From: Candidatus Velamenicoccus archaeovorus
GTDB lineage: Bacteria > Omnitrophota > Gorgyraeia > Velamenicoccales > Velamenicoccaceae
Length of the DNA: 32,000 nt
Reading direction: 5' to 3'
Assembly: GCF_004102945.1 (NCBI RefSeq)
Contig: NZ_CP019384.1
Span: 840,001 to 872,000 of the forward strand
The position numbers were made by a program, and so were the translations under genes. Of this stretch, positions 1,719-21,084 are shown piece by piece. The first letter of the stretch is position 1. The number at the start of each line of letters is the position of its first letter. The notes beneath the pieces were generated by a model. It ran no database searches. It saw only the letters and a program-made list of their open reading frames with translations, and was not told the origin of the DNA.

Positions 1719-3343
1719 TATTTTATGATCCCCGGTTTGCCGTAGAGTTCCAAGAGGTCATTGATGTTTTCGATACCCCAGGTGGCGATACGGGATTCTT
1801 TGGCCAGGAGTTTTGCATTGCGGTCGATCTCTCCCAGTCCGATGATGATCTTGTGTACCTTTTTCTGTTTGAAGGATTTGACCATGGCAATGAATTCCGT
1901 GACGTCGTGTTCGTTGATGCCGTCTTCTTTGATGGCGGCGATCCAGAGGTTGTCCTGGGTTTTACCGAAGATGCCGACGCGCAGATTGGAATTTTCGAAC
2001 GTGACGAGTTTAAGCTCTTTGAAGGCGTCGAGCTGGAATTTCTTGCGGTCGATGAGGATCTCATCGTCGATCTCGAACTGGTTGAAGACTTCGCAGATCC
2101 TGTCGGCAACCGGTTTTTTGGAGACGTTGAAGAAGGCGTCGATCTCGTTTTGGATCTGGCGGTGGAAATGGGCCACCTGTTCCGTCAGGTCGTGGCTCAA
2201 GCTGTTAAGTTTTTCCGCGTGGGCGAATTTGAGCCAGAAGGCCAGAAGCCTGTCCGTGATGACATAAAAAGATCCGTTCTTGGTCAGGATGCCGAGATCG
2301 ATGAGTTTGTTGCATTTCTGGATGACCTGTGAACGTTGCTGTCTTAACTGGGGCGCCAGGTCTTTGAGGCGGTTTTTTCCAAGGGCGACGGCATCCAGAA
2401 GATAGACGAAGTCGTTTTTATTGCGTCCGAGGGTCAGGAGGGCCAGGCGCATCGTGAAGCGCAGGTTGAAGACCCCCCAGTCGTGGAAGAGGAGCTTTTC
2501 AAGGGTCTGGATGAGGATGTCGGCGGTCAGGGTTTTTTGCTGGGCGGCGCGGCATGCAACGGCCGCTTCTTCGGAAAGGATCTTGAGGTAAAACGGGTGG
2601 CCTCCCGTGAAGTAGATCAGGAAATCCATCAGATCTTTCGAGATCTCGACATCGCCGAAGATTTTCGCAATGATCCGTTCGCTGCCGGGCCCTGTGAAAT
2701 TTTCCAGTTCCAGCGTTTCAAAATTCCCGAAGAGAAGCGAAAGGTCGCTCAGGAGGATGTCTTTGGCAAGGGCTTTATGGGAACTGGAAAAGATAAAAAG
2801 GGTGTTCTTCTGCAGCATGATCCTTTTGCCGAGATCGCTGCAGATCTCGTCATACCCTAGTTTTTTCAGGTGGTGGAATTCGTCGAAGACGATGACGATC
2901 CGGCGCTGGCTTTCCGTAGCGAAGAGGTCGAAGAGGTCGAAGAGCTCCGAAAACAGCCGTTCGGGGCGGTCTTTATCAATTTTTTTCAATAGGGATTCCG
3001 CAGCTGCCGCCGTTTGGGGCAGGAGGTCTTTGGTGCGTTTGACCAGGATGTCCAATGTTTCTCTGGAGGAGAGAAGCTGGGCGTCTTTAAGATAGTTGAA
3101 CAAAAGGCTGTTGAGGCATCTTTTGAGGAAGAGGGAATATTCATGGGGGAAGATTTCCACATAGATCGGGATGATCCCCTCTTCTTTGAACCCGTCCAGG
3201 AATTTCTTCAGAACGGTGGTCTTGCCGATCAGCTCTTCGCCGAGGATAGCGACATTCTGCCGGTATCCGTCCCGGAAATCCGAGAGGCGTTTATGGAGCA
3301 GATCCAAGATTTCTTTGCGTAAAGACGCAATGACGTTATCCAT
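1718..3343 (-). CDS. P-loop ATPase of the archaeal-ATPase (PF01637-like) type with wHTH and a DUF234/PD-(D/E)xK-like C-terminal domain
   Basis: Walker A GEELIGKTT, Walker B IVIVFDEFHHL, and the TGGHPFYL motif typical of this family. A wHTH-like segment follows (LIDLGILTKNGSFYVITDRLLAFWLKF). The C-terminus has restriction-endonuclease-like topology. Start set to ATG 3343 (MDNVIASL), 1 nt after the nlpD-like stop, rather than the overlapping ORF start at 3430. Confidence 0.75.
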   Translation of the reverse strand: MDNVIASLRKEILDLLHKRLSDFRDGYRQNVAILGEELIGKTTVLKKFLDGFKEEGIIPIYVEIFPHEYSLFLKRCLNSLLFNYLKDAQLLSSRETLDILVKRTKDLLPQTAAAAESLLKKIDKDRPERLFSELFDLFDLFATESQRRIVIVFDEFHHLKKLGYDEICSDLGKRIMLQKNTLFIFSSSHKALAKDILLSDLSLLFGNFETLELENFTGPGSERIIAKIFGDVEISKDLMDFLIYFTGGHPFYLKILSEEAAVACRAAQQKTLTADILIQTLEKLLFHDWGVFNLRFTMRLALLTLGRNKNDFVYLLDAVALGKNRLKDLAPQLRQQRSQVIQKCNKLIDLGILTKNGSFYVITDRLLAFWLKFAHAEKLNSLSHDLTEQVAHFHRQIQNEIDAFFNVSKKPVADRICEVFNQFEIDDEILIDRKKFQLDAFKELKLVTFENSNLRVGIFGKTQDNLWIAAIKEDGINEHDVTEFIAMVKSFKQKKVHKIIIGLGEIDRNAKLLAKESRIATWGIENINDLLELYGKPGIIK

Positions 3344-4049: not shown

Positions 4050-4125
4050 ATAATGAAACCGACAGCTAAACGAATTTTAAGCGAGCAAGAGGAATCCCCG
4101 GCAGGGAACCCACAAATTTTTCCTA

Positions 4126-4196
4126 AGCGGGTGAGCGGAATCGAACCGCCGTGTACAGCTTGGGAAGCTGCCATTCTACCATTGAATTACACCCGC
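4126..4196 (-). tRNA. tRNA-Gly (anticodon CCC), 71 nt, no encoded CCA
   Basis: Hand-folded cloverleaf on the minus strand: GCGGGTG-TA-ATTC-AATGGTA-GAAT-G-GCAGC-TTCCCAA-GCTGT-ACAC-GGCGG-TTCGATT-CCGCT-CACCCGC-T. It has a 7-bp acceptor stem, a TTCGATT T-loop and CCC at positions 34-36. Confidence 0.9.
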
Positions 4197-4246
4197 AAAT
4201 CAGGTAGCTCGCAAATTTTTAAACATCCTGTCCGCACAGGTGTTTT

Positions 4247-4275
4247 ATTCTATCACCAGGAGGAATCTTCGTCAA
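4247..4275 (-). promoter_or_regulatory. Sigma70-type promoter for tRNA-Gly (TTGACG-17 nt-TAGAAT)
   Basis: Minus strand: -35 TTGACG (4275-4270), 17-nt spacer, -10 TAGAAT (4252-4247). It lies about 50 nt upstream of the tRNA 5' end and directly after the thiC stop. Confidence 0.6.
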
Positions 4276-4281
4276 TAAGTC

Positions 4282-5613: not shown

Positions 5614-6253
5614 GGTTTTTTTTCAAAATGGCTTTGAGTTTACGGGTTGTTGAGGCGATATCCTTTGCCAGGCAGATTTCCCTGCAGACGGCTGTGCGGT
5701 CCGACCCGGCCGACAGGATGCTTGGGAGACGGCCGAGATCGATGCCGCCGATGGCAAAGACAGGTCGAGATGTCAAGGAGAGGGCTTGACGCAAAAGTGC
5801 TAATCCGCGGGGACGCATGCCGGGCTTGGTAAGAGTGGCAAAAACAGGTCCGAATCCCAGGTAGTCGACCGGCATTTTGCGGCTTGCGCGCACGTCCTTT
5901 AAGCTATGGCATGAGATGCCGATAAGCGCATCTGGGCCGAGCAATTTCCTGGCCACGGCAACGGGCGCATCATCCTGGCCTAAATGGACGCCGTCGGCGT
6001 CAACCGCTTTCGCGACATCGATACGGTCGTTGACGATGAACAGGCGTCCGGCCTTGCGGGTCATGGATGCCAGCGGTTTGGCGAAGGCGATCATTTCCCT
6101 TGCCATGGACGTCTTGTCGCGTAATTGCACGATGTCCACGCCGCCTGCAAGCGCTGCAGCCATGATGCTTTTAAGTTTTTGCGGCCCGCAGACGTCTTTA
6201 TCGAGGATCAAGTAAAGACGGGAATTTTTTAAGACTTGTTTTTTCCAATTCAT
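5606..6253 (-). CDS. thiE: Thiamine-phosphate synthase ThiE
   Basis: LYLILD..., GVDIVQLRDK, IGISCH, DYLGFGPVFAT.TK, VFAIGGI motifs of the ThiE TIM barrel. ATG at 6253. Confidence 0.9.
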   Translation of the reverse strand: MNWKKQVLKNSRLYLILDKDVCGPQKLKSIMAAALAGGVDIVQLRDKTSMAREMIAFAKPLASMTRKAGRLFIVNDRIDVAKAVDADGVHLGQDDAPVAVARKLLGPDALIGISCHSLKDVRASRKMPVDYLGFGPVFATLTKPGMRPRGLALLRQALSLTSRPVFAIGGIDLGRLPSILSAGSDRTAVCREICLAKDIASTTRKLKAILKKNHV

Positions 6254-11259: not shown

Positions 11260-11739
11260 TTAGGCCGGCTCAACCAGGAATAATGCCTGTCCGAATTCGA
11301 CGGGCTCGGCGTTGTTGACCAGGATGTCGACGATCTTGCCTCTGATTTCGGATTTGATCTCGTTCATCAGCTTCATGGCTTCGACGATGCAGACGACCTG
11401 GCCGATTTCCACGTTTTGGTTGATTTCGATGAAGGGCGGCGATTCCGGAGACGGGGCTCGATAGAACGTCCCGACCATGGGAGACTTGATCTCGATAAGG
11501 TTTTTTCCCGATGCGCGTTCACGGGGGGCCTCTTTGGCGGCGGCCGGCGTCTGGACGGGATGGAACTCCGGCATGACCGGGACAGACAGGGGTGTTTTAT
11601 GTTGCGGCTGTTCAACGATTACCTGGCCTTCGGAGCCTTTTTTTAGCCGAACCCGCAGGCCTTCCTTTTCAATCTCGAGTTCCGTGAGATTGTTCTCATT
11701 CATGAGATTAATCATTTCCTTAATCTCTTTGATATTCAT
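11260..11739 (-). CDS. accB: Biotin carboxyl carrier protein
   Basis: C-terminal biotinyl domain with the EAMKLMNEI biotinylation motif and a Pro/Ala-rich linker. 159 aa. Confidence 0.95.
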   Translation of the reverse strand: MNIKEIKEMINLMNENNLTELEIEKEGLRVRLKKGSEGQVIVEQPQHKTPLSVPVMPEFHPVQTPAAAKEAPRERASGKNLIEIKSPMVGTFYRAPSPESPPFIEINQNVEIGQVVCIVEAMKLMNEIKSEIRGKIVDILVNNAEPVEFGQALFLVEPA

Positions 11740-15066: not shown

Positions 15067-15973
15067 CGAAGGTCTCCCGGAAATAAACGGCCGATTGCCT
15101 GACTTCGTCCTGCGTCACGTGGCCGTGGAGCTCCATGACTTTGATGGTTTCAGGCCGGACGTAAGGCTTGAAATCGTTGAAATTCACCTGGCCGGTCATG
15201 GCCGCCTGGTGGTCGACGAGGTTGTTGACATTGTGCAGATGAATGCCGATCAAGCGGTCGCCGTAATCTTTCAGGAGTTTTCCGTGCGGCAGAAAACCCA
15301 GCTGCTCGAGGATGAAGTTATGGCCGACATCGAGCCATAATCCTACGGGCCTGCCTTTGAGCGCGCAAAAGATTTCCCTGAATTCGTCCAGAAAGGGGAT
15401 TTCGCGGTAATAGAACCTGTTTTCGATGCCGAGCTTGAGGCCGCATTCTTCGGCCGTGTCGCTCAGGGCTTTTAGGCTTTTGATGAGTTGCGGGATGTGG
15501 TCGCGGCTTTTGGTTTTGCGTTCTTTGACGAAGGCTGCGAAATCCTCCCGGTATTGCGGCGTTTCCTTCTTGCTTTCCTGCGCCAGCCGGATGAGATGCC
15601 GCGTCTTGTCTCTTATCTCCGCGCGGCCGCAATGCAGGACGACACACGACGCCCCGCAACGGTGGGCCACAAGCAGGGTATTGCGTGTATGGGCAACGGC
15701 TAAAAGCCTTTCGGTTTCGTCAAGGCTGGCAAGCGAAAAGTGATCTGGAAGAGTTTTGAGGCGTTCCAGTCCATCGGGGACCGGACAAAAATTATGGAGA
15801 CTGACGATGGAAAGTCCGTGCGTGCGGCAATAATCCAGGATCTCTTCCACCATCTTTGAGTCGAGAAAAAAGTTCAACTCAACGCAAGAGATGCCGGTGT
15901 CCTGGATTTCTTTGATAACCTCAAGGCCTGTCTCTCTTCGGCCGGCATTCCAGACGGTGGACAGCGCCAACAT
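15059..15973 (-). CDS. Xylose-isomerase-like TIM-barrel protein (sugar phosphate isomerase/epimerase family)
   Basis: Family-level resemblance only (VELNF..., GIEN..., LDVGH..., HLHN metal-ligand-like positions). 304 aa. The stop overlaps the Memo-like start by 8 nt. Confidence 0.7.
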   Translation of the reverse strand: MLALSTVWNAGRRETGLEVIKEIQDTGISCVELNFFLDSKMVEEILDYCRTHGLSIVSLHNFCPVPDGLERLKTLPDHFSLASLDETERLLAVAHTRNTLLVAHRCGASCVVLHCGRAEIRDKTRHLIRLAQESKKETPQYREDFAAFVKERKTKSRDHIPQLIKSLKALSDTAEECGLKLGIENRFYYREIPFLDEFREIFCALKGRPVGLWLDVGHNFILEQLGFLPHGKLLKDYGDRLIGIHLHNVNNLVDHQAAMTGQVNFNDFKPYVRPETIKVMELHGHVTQDEVRQSAVYFRETFGD

Positions 15974-15976
15974 AGG

Positions 15977-16138
15977 TCAGAATTTCCTGCGGGCCTTTTT
16001 TCTCTTCTTTTCGCTGGGTTTTTCGTAGTGCTTGCGGTCTTTGACCTCTTTGAGGATGCCTTCGCGTTCGATCTTCCTCTTGAAACGCCGAAGTGCCGCC
16101 TCGAAAGACTCGTCTTTCCTGACTTCAACTTCCGACAT
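15977..16138 (-). CDS. rpsU: 30S ribosomal protein S21
   Basis: Below the ORF-track size cutoff. My translation: MSEVEVRKDESFEAALRRFKRKIEREGILKEVKDRKHYEKPSEKKRKKARRKF (53 aa). A GAGGAG Shine-Dalgarno lies 5 nt upstream of the ATG. Confidence 0.9.
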   Translation of the reverse strand: MSEVEVRKDESFEAALRRFKRKIEREGILKEVKDRKHYEKPSEKKRKKARRKF

Positions 16139-16287
16139 CGATTCTCCTCATCCCGCCTCTGGCGGGATGACTCTGAGGCCTGCGTTAAGTCAATTTCACG
16201 AACGACTCTGGCGTTTGTGAGTGAAATTGACAAGCGTTTTGGCCGAAGAGTCTCTCTTTGATGTATTTTTCCGCCTCTGGCGGAATT
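16139..16287. repeat. Leader element copy A (paralog of 20396-20580), directly abutting the rpsU Shine-Dalgarno
   Basis: Shares collinear blocks with copy B: CCGCCTCTGGCG[G/A]GATGACT, ATTTC[A/G]C...G[T/C]GAAATTG[A/G]CAAG, GAGTCT, GGCGGAAT. Contains hairpins at 16148-16170 (10 bp), 16189-16231 (11 bp or more) and 16269-16285 (7 bp). Confidence 0.7.
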
Positions 16288-16569
16288 AGGCCCTCCGCTA
16301 TGTGGTATTGCGGAGGCCTACCCTTTCTGGGTTAACTCCACCACTTGGCCTTATCGGAAAGGCCAGTGCGCCGCTTCCTGCGGCGGTGTATCTTGAGAAT
16401 TTATGGCTGCACCTGGCCCCAGATGAACGGGCCACACCTTGCCTTATCTGACCGGCAAGTGCACCATTTCCTGTGGCGGTATTCCGCTTCCTGCGGAACC
16501 CGCCCCGTTACAAATGGAATTTGTAACGGGGCCCGTCCGAGTCCTGGCCCGACCTGTCGGTCAGGGCCG
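16288..16569. repeat. Array of imperfect palindromic stem-loops / degenerate direct repeats (REP/BIME-like, or a structured RNA)
   Basis: Hand-identified inverted repeats at 16288-16319, 16342-16368, 16369-16385, 16414-16434, 16435-16461, 16482-16498, 16502-16532 (perfect 14 bp) and 16545-16569. Two ~50-nt modules about 93 nt apart share CCTTATC...GTGC.CC..TTCCTG.GGCGGT. Confidence 0.65.
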
Positions 16570-16653
16570 AGACGAGGCTGGGTGAGACAGAAATTTCCAA
16601 GATGTAAACACAAGGGGTAACGTTTGTCCCTTTCCCCTCTTCACAATTCGCTA

Positions 16654-16682
16654 ATCATATCATTTCGTTTCAAAGCTGTCAA
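16654..16682 (-). promoter_or_regulatory. Near-consensus sigma70 promoter (TTGACA-17 nt-TATGAT) firing toward the hairpin region and rpsU
   Basis: Minus strand: -35 TTGACA (16682-16677), exactly 17 nt, then -10 TATGAT (16659-16654). It is about 510 nt upstream of the rpsU ATG. Confidence 0.65.
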
Positions 16683-16715
16683 CAGGCAGATTCATCCGTT
16701 TCAGGCGTGTTGAAA

Positions 16716-16733
16716 GCCGCAACATTTTGCGGT
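16716..16733 (-). terminator. Weak candidate terminator hairpin after the tonB-like gene
   Basis: Minus strand CCGCAA-AATG-TTGCGG followed by CTTTCAA. The stem is short (6 bp) and the U-tract poor. Confidence 0.3.
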
Positions 16734-16773
16734 TCTTGTTGTTGCGCCTGCCTGGCTCTTCGAGGAGGGCGTA

Positions 16774-17451
16774 TTATTTCAGCTCGAAAGAGATGATGAC
16801 ATTAAAGGCAAGCTGTTCTTTATCCTGGAGTTTTATCGGGAATTCCGGGAAAGGCGATGATTCCTGGACGCTCTCTAAGGCAATCCGGCGCAGATACTCG
16901 TCATTCACGGATTTGGCCGTATCCACATGCGCTTCTTTGAGTTCGCCTGAGCGCGTGAGCGTGAAAGTCAAAAAGACCTCTCCTTCTTGGATATGCCTGT
17001 AGTTCCTGTACGCCTGTCTGCGGATCTTTTCGCGTACGATCTGGTAATAATTCTTATATTCCGGCGACTGAAAAACTTCGCCGGGGATATTGGGGGTCTG
17101 GACGGATTTCTTTTTTGGGCCCTCGGCTGCCGGCTTCATTTGTTGAGGGAGGTCTTCTTCCCGCTCCTGCCGGAAGATCTCCGCCTTGAGGAAATCATCA
17201 AGGATATTTTTGCGGTCTTCAGAGGCTTGTATCTGCGGGCTCGGTGTCTGAATGCGTTCTTTTTGGGCGACCGGCTCAGGCGAGATATCCCTGCCTTCTT
17301 TTTCATGACCGAAGCTCTGGACATAAGCGACTTCGATAGGCCTTTGGCTCGGCGCGTATGTCAGGATGTGGTAAGGCAGGGCCGCTATCAATCCAGCGTG
17401 GAAGATGGCTGAGAACGCCAGACACCTGTAGAAAAGGGTGTTTTCCTTCAT
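16774..17451 (-). CDS. TonB-family energy transducer (C-terminal TonB domain)
   Basis: N-terminal TM helix (FYRCLAFSAIFHAGLIAAL) and a charged/Pro-containing linker. C-terminal EGEVFLTFTLTRSGELKEAHV...SPFPEFP is typical of TonB_C. Start set to ATG 17451. Confidence 0.75.
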   Translation of the reverse strand: MKENTLFYRCLAFSAIFHAGLIAALPYHILTYAPSQRPIEVAYVQSFGHEKEGRDISPEPVAQKERIQTPSPQIQASEDRKNILDDFLKAEIFRQEREEDLPQQMKPAAEGPKKKSVQTPNIPGEVFQSPEYKNYYQIVREKIRRQAYRNYRHIQEGEVFLTFTLTRSGELKEAHVDTAKSVNDEYLRRIALESVQESSPFPEFPIKLQDKEQLAFNVIISFELK

Positions 17452-17457
17452 AGCAAT

Positions 17458-17487
17458 ATTGTAACAGAATATATGGCTGGATGGCAA
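17458..17487 (-). promoter_or_regulatory. Candidate promoter with extended -10 (TTGCCA-18 nt-TGtTACAAT), 6 nt upstream of the tonB-like ATG
   Basis: Minus strand: -35 TTGCCA (17487-17482), TGTTACAAT (17466-17458), then ATTGCT and ATG at 17451. There is no Shine-Dalgarno in between. Confidence 0.5.
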
Positions 17488-17490
17488 CGT

Positions 17491-17528
17491 GATCCTCCCC
17501 GCCCCGGACATGACCGGGGCGGGGATCC
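17491..17528 (-). terminator. GC-rich perfect hairpin after the TonB-dependent receptor gene (terminator-like, lacks a U-tract on the sense strand)
   Basis: CCCCGCCCCGG (17497-17507) / CCGGGGCGGGG (17514-17524), an 11-bp perfect stem with a 6-nt loop, flanked by GATC/GATC. Confidence 0.4.
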
Positions 17529-17538
17529 TTATTTCATT

Positions 17539-19533
17539 TCAGAACGTCAGGCGGCAGCCGGCCATGAACCGCCGTCCGGGCGCCGGATAGAAGTTGCGCG
17601 TGCTGCTGAATACGGAGACAACGCCGTATTCGGAATATTCCGCATCAAAGATATTGTCGATGCCGGCAAAGAGTTCCATATTCTTCCAGCGACGGCTCGC
17701 ATTCAGATCGACCGTGACGTAATCAGCCATTTTTGGATAAGCGTTTTGTTGGTCGCTGACGAGATACATGGATCCGACATAGTTGACCAGAAAATTGAGC
17801 GTGAAGGCCTGGTCAGGCGTCCAACGGAAGCCTCCGGAAGCCTTATGCATGGGGACCGCGGGGATGGTGTTGCCTTCGAACGATCCCTTGCCGAACACGG
17901 CGTCCGTATAAGTGTAATTGGCCGTGAGTTTGAATTGAGAGTTGACGGCGTATTCGCCCTGGGCTTCGAGGCCCTGGTGGGTTGTCTTGTCGTAATTACT
18001 GTTTTGGTAGGTCATTGGATTGAGGTATATTTCATTGGTGATCGCATGATGGAAGTAGTTCAGGGTGACGTTGGCCTGACGGGAGATCTTGTGGCGGATG
18101 CCCACCTCGATATCTTTGCCTTCCTGGGGTTTGAGTCCTGTGTTGAGTCCTCCGGAACCCCAGGTGTTGGAGGTAAAAAATTCGTCCACAAGAGGAAAGC
18201 GGAAGCTTGAGGAATAGTCGCAGTAAAAGTTTGTCGTGTCTCCGAGGAGATAGACAATGCCTATGTCATAGACGTCTGTTGTGAGGTTTTTCTTTTCTTT
18301 CAGGTCGACCTGCGTGATCTGGTGAAAGAGATATTGCGCCATCTCGTGGCGGTAACCCGCTTTGAGCGACAGGCGATCCGTCGCCTGGATACGGTCTTGC
18401 AGATAGATGCCTTGTGTATGTTTGGTGATGAGGATCTTATCGTTGGCAGCGCCCATCATGCCGTCTAAGATGTTGTCTTCGTCAAAATACAGGTCGGCGC
18501 CGAAAATAAGCGTGTTCGGCATATTGGCCAGAGAAGCGTCTATCGTATATTTGGGCGTGATGCCGACGGTCGTAATGTGGTTCTCGTTCGACCAGGACGA
18601 CGAGAAATACTGTGAATCGACGTCCCTGTTGCGGAAGGAGACGTTGGTTTGAAGTTGTCCCTTTTCTTTAAAATCCGCCTTGAGTTCCAGATCCGTATAG
18701 TAGTCTTCCGTCTGCGCCAGGTCGTCGGGCTTGGTCGTGGCGCGCCGGCCGAAGGCGAGCATCTGGGCTTCGCTCAAGGCGCCCGGGAGGCGATAATTAT
18801 CCGTATGATAACCAAAAGACAGGCCGCTGGACCAGGCCTGGCCGAAGGCATGGTTCAGCCGCATGGCGAAATCGTCGCGCAGCAGGTTGCTGTTTTGGCG
18901 GTATCCTTTTGTATCGTAATATTCGCCGGATGCCCATGCCGAGCTTTTATCGTTGGCCGCCGAGACTTCCACAAGCGTGCCGAAGGTGTTGTAGCTGCCT
19001 CCTTTTGTTTCCAGCTTGAAGGCAGGCCGGCCTTTTCCTTTCTTCGTGATGATGTTGATGACGCCGCCCGATGCGTTGTCGCCATAAAGGACGCTGGAAG
19101 CGCCCCTGACGATCTCGATGCGTTCGACCTGCGAGAGGGATATCTGGCTCCAGTCGGTATTGCTGAGGTCGATGGCATTGACCCTGCGGCCGTCGATCAG
19201 GACGAGCATGTTGCTGGGCCCTGTTTCGCCGAATCCGCGCATATCGACATTGACTGTTTTCCCCGTACCCGTATAGTCGCGGATCTCGATTCCCGCCTGG
19301 GCGCGCAGGATGTCCGGGATCGTCTGGGCATTGGATTCCCGGATATCCTCTTCGTCGATGATGGTCGTGTATTTGCTTGCGTTCTTGATCTCTTCGGCTG
19401 CACGTGATGCCGTCACCACGATGCGTTCCATTTCGATGACGTCTTCTTTCTTTCCTTTTGTTTCGGCCCAGGCCATCCGGACGGATGACAAGACGAGGGC
19501 CATCGCCACAACGATCCCTGTTCTTTTTCTCAT
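17539..19533 (-). CDS. TonB-dependent outer-membrane receptor, probably cobalamin/corrinoid (BtuB-like) given the upstream riboswitch
   Basis: Signal peptide MRKRTGIVVAMALVLSSVRMAWA, TonB box ERIVVTASR, plug plus beta-barrel sequence, terminal ...RLTF. Start set to ATG 19533 (GGGGGAG upstream). The ORF-track start at 19629 lies inside the riboswitch expression platform. Confidence 0.9.
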   Translation of the reverse strand: MRKRTGIVVAMALVLSSVRMAWAETKGKKEDVIEMERIVVTASRAAEEIKNASKYTTIIDEEDIRESNAQTIPDILRAQAGIEIRDYTGTGKTVNVDMRGFGETGPSNMLVLIDGRRVNAIDLSNTDWSQISLSQVERIEIVRGASSVLYGDNASGGVINIITKKGKGRPAFKLETKGGSYNTFGTLVEVSAANDKSSAWASGEYYDTKGYRQNSNLLRDDFAMRLNHAFGQAWSSGLSFGYHTDNYRLPGALSEAQMLAFGRRATTKPDDLAQTEDYYTDLELKADFKEKGQLQTNVSFRNRDVDSQYFSSSWSNENHITTVGITPKYTIDASLANMPNTLIFGADLYFDEDNILDGMMGAANDKILITKHTQGIYLQDRIQATDRLSLKAGYRHEMAQYLFHQITQVDLKEKKNLTTDVYDIGIVYLLGDTTNFYCDYSSSFRFPLVDEFFTSNTWGSGGLNTGLKPQEGKDIEVGIRHKISRQANVTLNYFHHAITNEIYLNPMTYQNSNYDKTTHQGLEAQGEYAVNSQFKLTANYTYTDAVFGKGSFEGNTIPAVPMHKASGGFRWTPDQAFTLNFLVNYVGSMYLVSDQQNAYPKMADYVTVDLNASRRWKNMELFAGIDNIFDAEYSEYGVVSVFSSTRNFYPAPGRRFMAGCRLTF

Positions 19534-19544
19534 GACACTCCCCC

Positions 19545-19585
19545 CAAAATAAAAAACCCTTGACCTCATAAAGAAGTCAAGGGTA
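19545..19585 (-). terminator. Intrinsic terminator forming the riboswitch expression platform
   Basis: Minus strand: CCCTTGAC-TTCTTTATGAG-GTCAAGGG followed by TTTTTTATTTT. It ends about 15 nt before the receptor's Shine-Dalgarno. Confidence 0.75.
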
Positions 19586-19639
19586 AAGCACCAAATGTAT
19601 CGTGCCTCGGCCTGAACCCTCGCAGCCAAAAGGTCTGAA

Positions 19640-19872
19640 ACTATAGGCAGGTCTTCTGGCTTACCTGCAGCTTAAGAGACGAGCCTTCCCGCTCTTTTAA
19701 AAAAAGAGCAGTGGCTGTGTGAGTCTCTGCTTTGCCCCGGCAATTCTAGCCGGGACGCAGGATTACAGCGGCGGGACCGCGGCCGAATTTCCAGCATGAA
19801 TTTTAAATAAAATTCGTGCTGAATCACGACACTTCCCTTGTTCCGTTACTGGGTGGTGCTGACGGAACGGCC
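19640..19872 (-). promoter_or_regulatory. Cobalamin (B12) riboswitch aptamer
   Basis: Minus-strand core motifs in canonical order: AAGGGAAG (19839-19832), GGAAATTC, GGTCCCGCCGCTGTAA (19778-19763), GCCACTG (19715-19709), GGGAAGGC (19690-19683), and B12 box AGCCAGAAGACCTGCC (19662-19646). Confidence 0.85.
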
Positions 19873-19888
19873 TATAGAAATAATAATG

Positions 19889-20395
19889 TTACTTCAAAAG
19901 AGCGGTTTCCAGGCGTGTTCCTTTGACGAGCCTGGCGGCAATCTCGTAGGTGCCGAAGAGAACGACGCTGGAAACAAGCGTTCCAGCGAGAAAATATCTG
20001 AAGAAAGGCACGGCGGCGATGAAGCACGCCTGCAATCCCTGCAGGGTCTGGGGGTACCACCCGGCGAGCCAGACGCCGAAATTTGTCACGACAAAAAAGA
20101 CCAGGGAAGACAAAAGCGAGCCGGCCAGGACGGTCGTGACCGCACGGGCATGGCGCAGGGAGATGCCGATCATGCTGATCAAAAGGACGGACCCCCAGGT
20201 GAAGATGACGGTGTTGTACATGCCGAGGAACAGGTCGCTGGTGATCATGAGGACGAGCGGCACGATGATAGCCAGTCTGCGACTAGGCAGGTGCGCGGCA
20301 GCAAAGAGCGCTATCGCGGCTACAGGGGTGACATTGGGAACATGAGGCAGAAATCTGCATAAAACGCCGATGACGATCAGGATCCAGGCTAACAT
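19889..20395 (-). CDS. Small polytopic membrane protein, DUF6580-like (putative vitamin/corrinoid transport component)
   Basis: 168 aa with 5-6 predicted TM helices. RFLPHVPNVTPVAAIALFAAA and FFVVTNFGVWL...YP.TL.GL.AC..AA.PFFR match my recollection of the DUF6580 family. AAGGAGG Shine-Dalgarno upstream. Confidence 0.65.
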   Translation of the reverse strand: MLAWILIVIGVLCRFLPHVPNVTPVAAIALFAAAHLPSRRLAIIVPLVLMITSDLFLGMYNTVIFTWGSVLLISMIGISLRHARAVTTVLAGSLLSSLVFFVVTNFGVWLAGWYPQTLQGLQACFIAAVPFFRYFLAGTLVSSVVLFGTYEIAARLVKGTRLETALLK

Positions 20396-20580
20396 CGAAC
20401 CTCCTTACTTCCGCCTCTGGCGAGATGACTTCCTGCCTGCCCCTTGGCAGGCCAGGCCGATTTCGCGAGCGCCCTGGCTTGCCTCCGGCGAGACCAAGGC
20501 GCCTGCGAGCGAAATTGGCAAGAGGTCAAGCGGGGAGTCTTTTTCTTTCTTTATCCAGTTTTTGGCGGAATGAGTCTTTT
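20396..20580. repeat. Leader element copy B (paralog of 16139-16287), directly abutting the Shine-Dalgarno of the DUF6580-like gene
   Basis: Same block order as copy A, with an expanded central hairpin: 20456-20466 pairs with 20509-20519, and there are inner stems at 20469-20473/20498-20502 and 20478-20492. An extra hairpin lies at 20435-20452. Confidence 0.7.
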
Positions 20581-20619
20581 TGCTGATTTTTCAATACAAG
20601 GAATCAAAACTATTCCTTA

Positions 20620-20647
20620 ATTTTATATACCCCTCTCCAAAAGTCAA
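20620..20647 (-). promoter_or_regulatory. Sigma70-type promoter (TTGACT-16 nt-TAAAAT) for the DUF6580-like gene / cobalamin locus
   Basis: Minus strand: -35 TTGACT (20647-20642), 16 nt, -10 TAAAAT (20625-20620). This implies a 5' UTR of about 215 nt. Confidence 0.6.
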
Positions 20648-20679
20648 GACAATTTTATCTCGTATCTGTGCAGGTTGAT

Positions 20680-21084
20680 CTATCCGTTGATCACAGAGAT
20701 GACCTTGGCGTTTTCCTTGGAGCTGATGACGAGCATGGCGCTGGTTTGCGCGCAGCCGCAGACCGTCCCGTAGACGTAATCCAGATTGATGCCGGCGTCC
20801 TTGATCTTTTTGGCAACGGCGGCCGCCGCTCCCACCTTGTCTTCCAGCATCACCGTGACGACGTCTTCTTCGGCCACTTGGAATCCCTTATTTTTCAATG
20901 CGCTCTTGGCGGCTGCGCTATTGTCCGCGAGGAGGGCGAAGTGGGCCTTGCCTTCTTCTCCCCATGCGCAGATGCCCTTGAGATTGACCTTGGCGTCCGA
21001 CAAGGCTGTCGTGACATTGGCAAATTCACCTACCTTATCATTGGTCGTGACGAGGATCTGTTTGCTCAATTGGGCTTTGGACAT
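20680..21084 (-). CDS. Tandem ACT-domain protein
   Basis: Two ~65-aa ACT-like repeats (ILVTTNDKVGEFANVTTALSDAKVNL... and VVTVMLEDKVGAAAAVAKKIKDAGINL...). AGGAGG Shine-Dalgarno. Confidence 0.75.
   Translation of the reverse strand: MSKAQLSKQILVTTNDKVGEFANVTTALSDAKVNLKGICAWGEEGKAHFALLADNSAAAKSALKNKGFQVAEEDVVTVMLEDKVGAAAAVAKKIKDAGINLDYVYGTVCGCAQTSAMLVISSKENAKVISVING

Follow-up and report, generated by a model that had tools for sequence, protein, structure and literature searches.

We analysed a 32,000-nucleotide (nt) window of the Candidatus Velamenicoccus archaeovorus genome (Omnitrophota; contig NZ_CP019384.1, positions 840,001 to 872,000), in which the ribosomal protein gene rpsU is preceded by a long non-coding leader. 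This leader is an array of a dispersed and mosaic family of hairpin repeats that resembles repetitive extragenic palindromes (REP) and miniature inverted-repeat transposable elements (MITE) and is specific to one narrow Omnitrophota clade. Members of the family are nearly always oriented with the gene downstream of them and end in a hairpin that adjoins the Shine-Dalgarno sequence (SD). The best explanation of the whole, to which we assign a probability of about 0.6, is a modular repeat family that is co-transcribed as 5' untranslated region (5'UTR) or intercistronic RNA and has a role in cis at the RNA level. The term clade is used here for loci that share an identical S21 protein and 72-92% identity of a neighbouring protein, and not for a group taken from a phylogeny.

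The window is compact, with its genes on the minus strand. A survey of its intergenic regions bore out an earlier note, made from the sequence alone, that the largest non-coding gap lies at 16139-16773, between rpsU (15977-16138, minus; the product belongs to Pfam Ribosomal_S21) and a TonB-like gene (16774-17511, minus). The near-consensus promoter that the note had placed at 16682-16654 also held up, with 11 of the 12 consensus positions matched; this promoter is outside the repeat and is ancestral. The gene (minus) strand of the region contained no terminator, as every terminator-like site there was on the plus strand. From the promoter, the lack of a gene-strand terminator and the intercistronic position of copies elsewhere, we infer that the array is transcribed as the rpsU 5'UTR and is part of the rpsU mRNA. 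Folding of the 522 nt from the promoter to the start codon gave -235.6 kcal/mol compared to -171.9 +/- 6.4 kcal/mol for shuffled sequence (z = -9.96), and the complementary strand was nearly equal in fold stability (z = -9.32). All 11 stem-loops that had been paired by hand in the note folded as described, among them a perfect 14-bp stem at 16502-16532 (-21.4 kcal/mol) and a 10-bp stem at 16148-16170 (-17.8 kcal/mol). The proposed degenerate direct repeats were recovered as a pair, D1, at 16342-16387 and 16435-16480 (spacing 93 nt, identity 78%). The repeat search likewise returned the recurring small GC hairpins, with two copies each of CCGCAGGAAGCGG and CCGCCAGAGGCGG within the gap and an additional copy, TCGCCAGAGGCGG, at 20411-20423, and CCGCCNGAGGCGG with at most one mismatch matched four times in the window against 0.42 expected. 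The note had recognised no known RNA family in the gap, and a search of the whole window with Rfam 15 at gathering score gave no match in the rpsU leader. At E <= 10, positions 15900-16900 and 20300-20750 yielded noise only (CRISPR-DR53 at the 3' end of the TonB gene, P9, RsmY, Lysine, PK-repZ and sR17). Two open reading frames (ORFs) run through the repeat array, 16345-16620 (plus, 91 codons) and 16401-16613 (minus, 70 codons); they had been judged not protein-like and are artefacts of the GC-rich palindromes.

The rpsU leader is the largest array of the family in the window (Table 1). Five module types were distinguished. MB is a long imperfect hairpin of about 34 bp whose variable tip bears nested small hairpins, AP denotes small apical hairpins, MC consists of two hairpins, and MA is a P1/P2 hairpin. 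The fifth, H, is a small GC hairpin (CGCC-NGA-GGCG) with a variable outer stem and is the constant unit of the arrays. Read 5' to 3' on the minus strand, the rpsU array has the order MB, MC, H, MA, H. The inserts nested in MB comprise hairpins at 16545-16569, 16502-16532, 16482-16498, 16435-16461 and 16414-16434 together with D1 copy b (16435-16480). The MB 3' arm of 25 nt was also found in related loci (L004 and L003/L011) and in many metagenome arrays, and the nhmmer profile for MC gave 41 matches across loci. The 3' strand of the terminal H runs directly into the SD (...GGCGGAATTAAGGAGG) and is followed by 5-9 nt and the ATG, so that the ribosome-binding site is either provided or framed by the repeat.

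Table 1. Positions of the rpsU leader array, the second array and associated signals in the 32,000-nt window.
Feature	Position	Strand	Basis
rpsU promoter TTGACA-17-TATGAT	16654..16682	minus	11/12 consensus positions plus TG extension; upstream of rpsU in all close relatives
Leader start and purine-rich linker (GCGAATTGTGAAGAGGGGAAAGGGACAAAC)	16622..16651	minus	sequence; resembles the junction RGGAAATWAAC that precedes MB modules elsewhere
MB 5' arm of long hairpin (GTTACCCCTTGTGTTTACATCTTGGAAATTTCTGTCTC...)	16576..16621	minus	nhmmer profile MB5; minimum-free-energy pairing with 16386-16409
Apical inserts nested in MB	16410..16575	minus	AP-type hairpins recur apically in other arrays
MB 3' arm (CAGCCATAAATTCTCAAGATACAC)	16386..16409	minus	nhmmer profile MB3
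D1 copy a (hairpins 16369-16385, 16342-16368), then MB closing segment GTGGAGTTAA	16332..16385	minus	repeat search, folding
MC: CCCAGAAAGGG hairpin, then TAGGCCTCCGC...GCGGAGGGCCTA hairpin	16285..16331	minus	nhmmer profile MC; hairpin 16288-16319 folds
Internal H (TTCCGCCAGAGGCGGAA)	16269..16285	minus	pattern match, folding
MA: helix P1 (GACTCTTCGGCC/GGCCTCAGAGTC) around hairpin P2 (16189-16231)	16169..16252	minus	alignments A1, A2
Terminal H (TCATCCCGCC-AGA-GGCGGGATGA), adjoins SD	16148..16170	minus	folding; core invariant, outer stem covaries
rpsU SD (GGAG) and start codon ATG (16138-16136)	16136..16147	minus	sequence
Promoter-like site TTGACT-16-TAAAAT upstream of DUF6580 gene	20620..20647	minus	sequence search
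Second array before DUF6580 gene (19889-20395)	20393..20539	minus	alignment with rpsU-proximal MA and H; folding

Metagenomes were scanned for H followed by an SD using a pattern built to exclude rpsU, CGCCNGAGGCGGRWN{0,1}TRAGGAGB, which gave 87 matches at 85 loci. About 58 of the 87 had the 3' end of MB, MC or MA directly to the left and a start codon 5-9 nt past the SD, and single contigs carried several matches (four on a 138-kb, three on a 73-kb and three on a 337-kb contig). The rest appear to be chance matches, of which a rough estimate predicts some tens, or lone H units in other taxa. For the census, nhmmer profiles for MA, the two MB arms, MC and AP were combined with a regular expression for H, and an array was counted when H occurred with at least one other module (n=73). 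The profiles detected arrays only in the close clade and in metagenome loci and none in 68 loci of other Omnitrophota and other phyla. In 73/73 arrays a start codon on the same strand opened an ORF 10-23 nt past the H core. Gene calls at the fetched loci were crude ORF calls and the upstream-context analysis was used without its minus-strand category; a sorting of H sites by these ORFs was discarded as unreliable, because spurious ORFs cross the GC-rich arrays, and start codons and ORFs were checked directly instead.

The 73 arrays precede 45 gene families with unrelated functions, and as orthologous copies inflate the array count we give the families as the independent contexts. The downstream families, for which 20 proteins were examined against Pfam, include the ribosomal proteins S3, S6, S11, S13 and L19, Cpn60 (GroEL), ClpP, thioredoxin, S-adenosylmethionine synthetase (MetK), ketol-acid reductoisomerase (IlvC), a class II tRNA synthetase, an ammonium transporter, an acyl-carrier-like protein, LemA and a ferritin-like protein. 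In many cases the array starts 0-20 nt past the stop codon of a co-oriented upstream gene and fills the intercistronic spacer, for example between rpsM and rpsK. All H units of an array were on one strand, with no inverted H inside any array, and the other intergenic regions of the same loci had no arrays at neutral positions such as gene 3' ends. A scan of viral contigs for the H and SD cassette gave no matches, and no relevant report was found in the literature on Omnitrophota repeats.

Two variants of the array end were seen. In place of H, some arrays finish in an alternative SD-proximal unit, ...ACCTNGNTATAGGCAAAATTAAGGAGG-ATG, that is absent from the window (L109, minus, ~5975-6075; L130, minus, ~867-1085; L083, plus, ~11590-11690; L128, minus, ~3114-3250) and that could contain a weak promoter, TTGNAA-16-TATAGG. 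H and SD also occurred with no long module at L085 (1103-1113, plus), L092 (3279-3289, plus) and L128 (minus, ~9485). In L085 and L092, which represent an AT-richer relative, this unit directly follows the upstream stop codon, and in L128 it is upstream of a dnaK-like gene. These cases point to H plus SD as the smallest unit of the family.

Comparison of rpsU leaders showed how variable the arrays are. An exact-protein look-up of S21 gave ten syntenic loci with identical S21, in the order TonB-dependent receptor, TonB-like gene, gap, rpsU, AP_endonuc_2, Memo and DUF1844, and a scan of a genome collection with the 304-amino-acid protein downstream placed UBA6210 and STD1_200 among the close relatives. 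The ten leaders were 284-635 nt long and differed in their module sets. The promoter, the final hairpin and the SD were kept in 10/10 loci, and the blocks between promoter and final hairpin were interchangeable, being present, absent, duplicated (L004), chimeric (L002) or nested. Between close strains, arrays gain, lose, duplicate and nest modules. In about 40 Omnitrophota loci of more distant relation the rpsU leader was only ~25-60 nt long with an equivalent TTGACA/TATAnT promoter in most. The long leader has therefore expanded recently, in one clade, in the interval from the ancestral promoter to the SD. Similarity to both leaders and to individual modules was confined to the close clade when searched by blastn against 82 loci, and a regular expression for C-NGA-G hairpins in the distant Omnitrophota matched by chance inside coding sequence.

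A single filled and empty comparison was available among the rpsU leaders. At ~2845-2870 of L001, ...ACATTA is joined directly to TCCCGTCAGAGACGGA (TCCCG), while in L003 ...ACATTA is followed by CCCCTTG...GGGGTTA and then ATCTCGCC (ATCTCG). The difference between L001 and L002/L003 is compatible with an insertion of MB at TTA(A) with duplication or with a deletion between TTA repeats. The 5' flanks of arrays elsewhere had WAAC alone in common. Another tandem hairpin repeat (CACACGAGTGAACACTTGGCCTTCCGATTGGCCAAGGTGTAA, 2-3 copies) was seen just upstream of the rpsU promoter in a distant Omnitrophota locus (L054, 9608-9686, plus); it resembles the CACTGGCC...GGCCAAGTG hairpins of the window, with homology undetectable by blastn.

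The earlier note had left open whether the region was a long structured rpsU leader, an independent large non-coding RNA or a palindrome cluster. The first of these is right as a description, as the array lies between promoter and SD with no gene-strand terminator, and wrong as an rpsU-specific regulator. A regulatory leader dedicated to rpsU, such as one for S21 autoregulation or a riboswitch, would agree with a strong promoter in front of the region and with rpsU immediately after it, and inspection of the sequence shows that pairing with the SD would in principle be open to the 5' strand of MA, which is rich in pyrimidines (CUCUUC). However, the same modules precede 45 unrelated gene families, strains with identical S21 differ in their architecture, the rpsU genes of other Omnitrophota have short leaders that lack the element, and Rfam returned no match, making this explanation extremely unlikely. 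We give next to no credence to an independent large non-coding RNA or to an RNA of the CsrB/RsmZ type that acts as a protein sponge through GGA loops. AGGAA loops are present at 16369-16385 and 16482-16498 and a weak RsmY-like match was obtained (E = 5.9), but this match scored 11 bits against a gathering threshold of 57, no terminator or other 3' end signal precedes rpsU, and many arrays are intercistronic within operons, beginning shortly past a stop codon and lacking a promoter of their own. A CsrA sponge, prompted by the AGGAA loops, was dropped as GGA is not conserved and relatives read AGAAA or AGA in most copies.

Covariation was assessed in alignments of module copies, counting a pair as compensatory when both sides had changed and pairing was kept. 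In the consensus fold of MA and H (alignment A2, 20 copies) 13/28 pairs were compensatory, mostly in P2, and in that of MB and H (alignment A3, 12 short copies) 18/44 were. The latter consensus consists of the ~34-bp MB hairpin followed directly by a 10-11-bp H stem. The core of H (CGCC/GGCG and the loop GA) was invariant while its outer stem covaried, with UA replaced by CG in 7/20 copies at one pair and CG, UA and AU found at another. Hairpin loops on the sense strand were 48% A and 70% purine, with AGA, AGAAA and GGA dominating; this composition is partly due to the same loops recurring in many copies.

With regard to function, an action of the array in cis on mRNA processing, stability and translation initiation, as opposed to gene-specific regulation, is a proposal that we place somewhat short of even odds. 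H would clamp the 5' edge of the SD and shield it from upstream sequence. The AU-rich linkers between the GC hairpins would be likely entry points for endonucleases, and cleavage there could leave a hairpin-protected 5' end on the downstream cistron. Stability and translation of that cistron would in this way be decoupled from the upstream context. The earlier note had held that dispersal of the palindromes would refute an RNA role. This does not follow for the present family as its copies, unlike plain REP elements, are nearly all sense-oriented, adjoin a start codon and carry an SD.

The main rival is that the modules are selfish or neutral DNA palindromes of the MITE, REP or foldback kind without RNA function that collect in the sparse non-coding DNA of a compact genome, their position and orientation reflecting insertion tolerance or site preference. 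Strains with identical S21 differ by gains, losses, duplications and nesting of modules, the long hairpin arms resemble terminal inverted repeats, and the one filled and empty comparison would allow insertion at TTA(A). The two strands are alike in fold stability, and nearly all covariation is from one Watson-Crick pair to another. Against this, the 73 arrays of the census are all in sense orientation and end 10-23 nt before a start codon, with one antisense array outside the set, and neutral positions in the same loci are free of arrays. The H core has stayed invariant although neighbouring stems diverged and covaried, and the repeat bears the SD of essential genes inside ribosomal-protein operons. 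No association with transposases was seen, though no systematic search for one was made. On balance we consider selfish or neutral palindromes unlikely, though a real possibility.

Several observations weigh against co-transcribed arrays with an RNA-level role. The scan pattern demanded a strong SD after H, so the sample is biased to SD-adjacent copies; copies outside this selection, namely internal H units and additional arrays at the same loci, had the same orientation. The exception is the array at L106 (425-663, plus), outside the 73, which is antisense to both flanking genes; in its variant H the loop reads GGC (TCCGCCGGCGGCGGA), and the gene downstream relies on an SD of its own. In minimum-free-energy folds of 65 distinct arrays G.U pairs numbered 218 in sense and 224 in antisense, and the antisense strand was the more stable in 50/65 arrays, by a mean of 4 kcal/mol. 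With wobble pairs this evenly divided between the strands, their counts do not point to selection acting on the sense RNA, and it could be as DNA that the palindromes are maintained. Modules also turn over quickly from strain to strain, which speaks against a precise function of any single one.

H itself could have a more specific role. If H served as operator for an RNA-binding factor specific to the lineage (a protein or a feature of the ribosome), the arrays would mark a post-transcriptional regulon or a standardised initiation signal. The core CGCC-NGA-GGCG is invariant and its spacing to the SD fixed across 45 gene families despite the varying outer stem and modules, lone H plus SD units exist (L128, before the dnaK-like gene, and L085/L092), and the recurring loops are A-rich (AGA, AGAAA). 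This operator is nevertheless very unlikely, as a candidate factor is lacking, the downstream genes have no common function, and recent common descent of the copies could equally explain the invariance of the core. In a broader version, which we rate as decidedly unlikely, H plus SD would be a portable, lineage-specific signal for translation initiation and processing, read by a dedicated factor or a feature of the clade's ribosomes, and the modules would spread in an orientation-specific manner, targeted just 5' of start codons. If true, this would amount to a mobile or copy-pasted ribosome-binding-site cassette that standardises the 5' ends of many housekeeping cistrons, including those within ribosomal-protein operons.

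The window contains a second, smaller array upstream of a gene of the family Pfam DUF6580, which is unrelated to rpsU. It consists of MA (20427-20539) with extra P3 and P4 hairpins, H (20407-20426), and AAGGAGG with the ATG (20393-20406). It can be aligned with the rpsU-proximal MA and H, with compensatory substitutions in P2, and no terminator was found on its gene strand. An exact-sequence look-up of the DUF6580 protein returned no record. In the minimum-free-energy fold of this leader GACCUCUU pairs with the SD, but an SD/anti-SD switch was dropped as a candidate as the corresponding strand forms the covarying P1 helix elsewhere. Upstream of the intact array, at 20555-20581 (minus), AAAAAGACTCATTCCGCCAAAAACTGG fuses the 5' end of MA to the 5' half of H and looks like a deletion remnant. 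A cobalamin riboswitch (RF00174, 75 bits, 19629-19890, minus) separates the DUF6580 gene from a TonB-dependent receptor gene (17539-19629), giving the operon order repeat leader, DUF6580, B12 riboswitch, receptor and TonB-like gene. As the receptor in the close relatives L001-L005 and L011-L014 has only ~25% identity, an exchange has occurred in this part of the locus. Elsewhere in the window a tRNA gene (RF00005, 66 bits, 4126-4196, minus) occupies the 232-nt gap at 4050-4281.

A mosaic repeat family that is nearly always in sense orientation and places a hairpin-clamped SD before ribosomal-protein, chaperone and biosynthetic genes is notable in a streamlined uncultured phylum. Such gaps in metagenome-assembled Omnitrophota genomes should not be annotated as riboswitch, small RNA or rpsU leader, and spurious internal ORFs such as 16345-16620 (plus) should be ignored. 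The arrays offer a natural test of whether structured spacers insulate or stabilise operon cistrons and of how such cassettes spread, and their fast module turnover makes them usable as strain markers.

Among known systems, the palindrome cluster of REP or bacterial interspersed mosaic element (BIME) type, the third possibility in the earlier note, came closest of the three: the palindromes are indeed dispersed at many loci, and they depart from that type in being sense-oriented, adjoining the start codon and carrying an SD. Like the REP/BIME clusters of Enterobacteria and the REPINs of Pseudomonas, the Omnitrophota units are GC-rich imperfect palindromes that are extragenic, dispersed and variable between strains, in mosaic clusters with variable linkers. 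H, AP, MC, MA and MB each recur at dozens of loci, several per contig, and co-transcription with neighbouring genes, a property of REP/BIME, is likewise inferred for the arrays. REPs within BIMEs and REPINs alternate in orientation, are mostly downstream of genes and are not known to carry an SD. In an Omnitrophota array, by contrast, every unit points the same way, and the start codon of the following gene marks the end of the array.

The MB arms (~34 bp) and the P1/P2 arms of MA pair as MITE terminal inverted repeats do, and as such are indistinguishable from RNA hairpins. Unlike a MITE, which is found in either orientation at varied sites, the 73 counted arrays are all in sense and adjoin start codons, the antisense array outside the set aside. 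Mycobacterial interspersed repetitive units (MIRUs) are tandem units in operon intercistronic spacers, in the same orientation as the genes; they are direct repeats of 40-100 bp with small ORFs overlapping the flanking stop and start codons (translational coupling). The Omnitrophota modules are instead hairpins that vary in length by insertions and deletions, making a conserved ORF in them unlikely. The intercistronic RNase III hairpins of phage T7 and the intercistronic expression elements of plastids are structured RNAs that allow processing into stable, translatable downstream cistrons. They offer a functional analogy only, being unrelated in sequence and host, and processing in Omnitrophota is a proposal.

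BOX elements of Streptococcus pneumoniae are modular and 67-637 bp long, and BOX, ERIC and Correia/NEMIS are co-transcribed hairpin repeats able to alter mRNA stability or processing (PMC3184786). Members of these families are found inserted in either orientation and at the 5' as well as the 3' ends of genes, a pattern that the Omnitrophota arrays do not follow. ERIC and Correia have TA target duplications, and none of the three ends in a fixed hairpin and SD unit. Few repeat families carry translation signals, and of the classes described the nearest is formed by REP2 of Neisseria and the IR-A/IR-B repeats of Borrelia. Their members are 120-180 bp long, dispersed and devoid of classical terminal inverted repeats, and lie directly upstream of ORFs; they have internal stem-loops and a ribosome-binding site, amount to a duplicated 5'UTR and were described as very unusual (PMC3184786). 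The Omnitrophota arrays are likewise directly upstream of ORFs, with H running into AAGGAGG and the start codon 10-23 nt past the H core. The likeness is by description and a sequence relationship is not expected. REP2 and the Borrelia repeats carry a promoter and ATG and the Omnitrophota repeat carries neither, as many of its copies are intercistronic, the rpsU promoter predates the repeat and the sequence after the SD is gene-specific. The former are about 25 single units before a co-regulated gene set, whereas the latter has at least five module types in arrays of up to ~500 nt before unrelated housekeeping genes. Compared to repeats of the REP2 and Borrelia kind, the Omnitrophota family is thus set apart by the lack of a promoter and ATG and by its multi-module mosaic.

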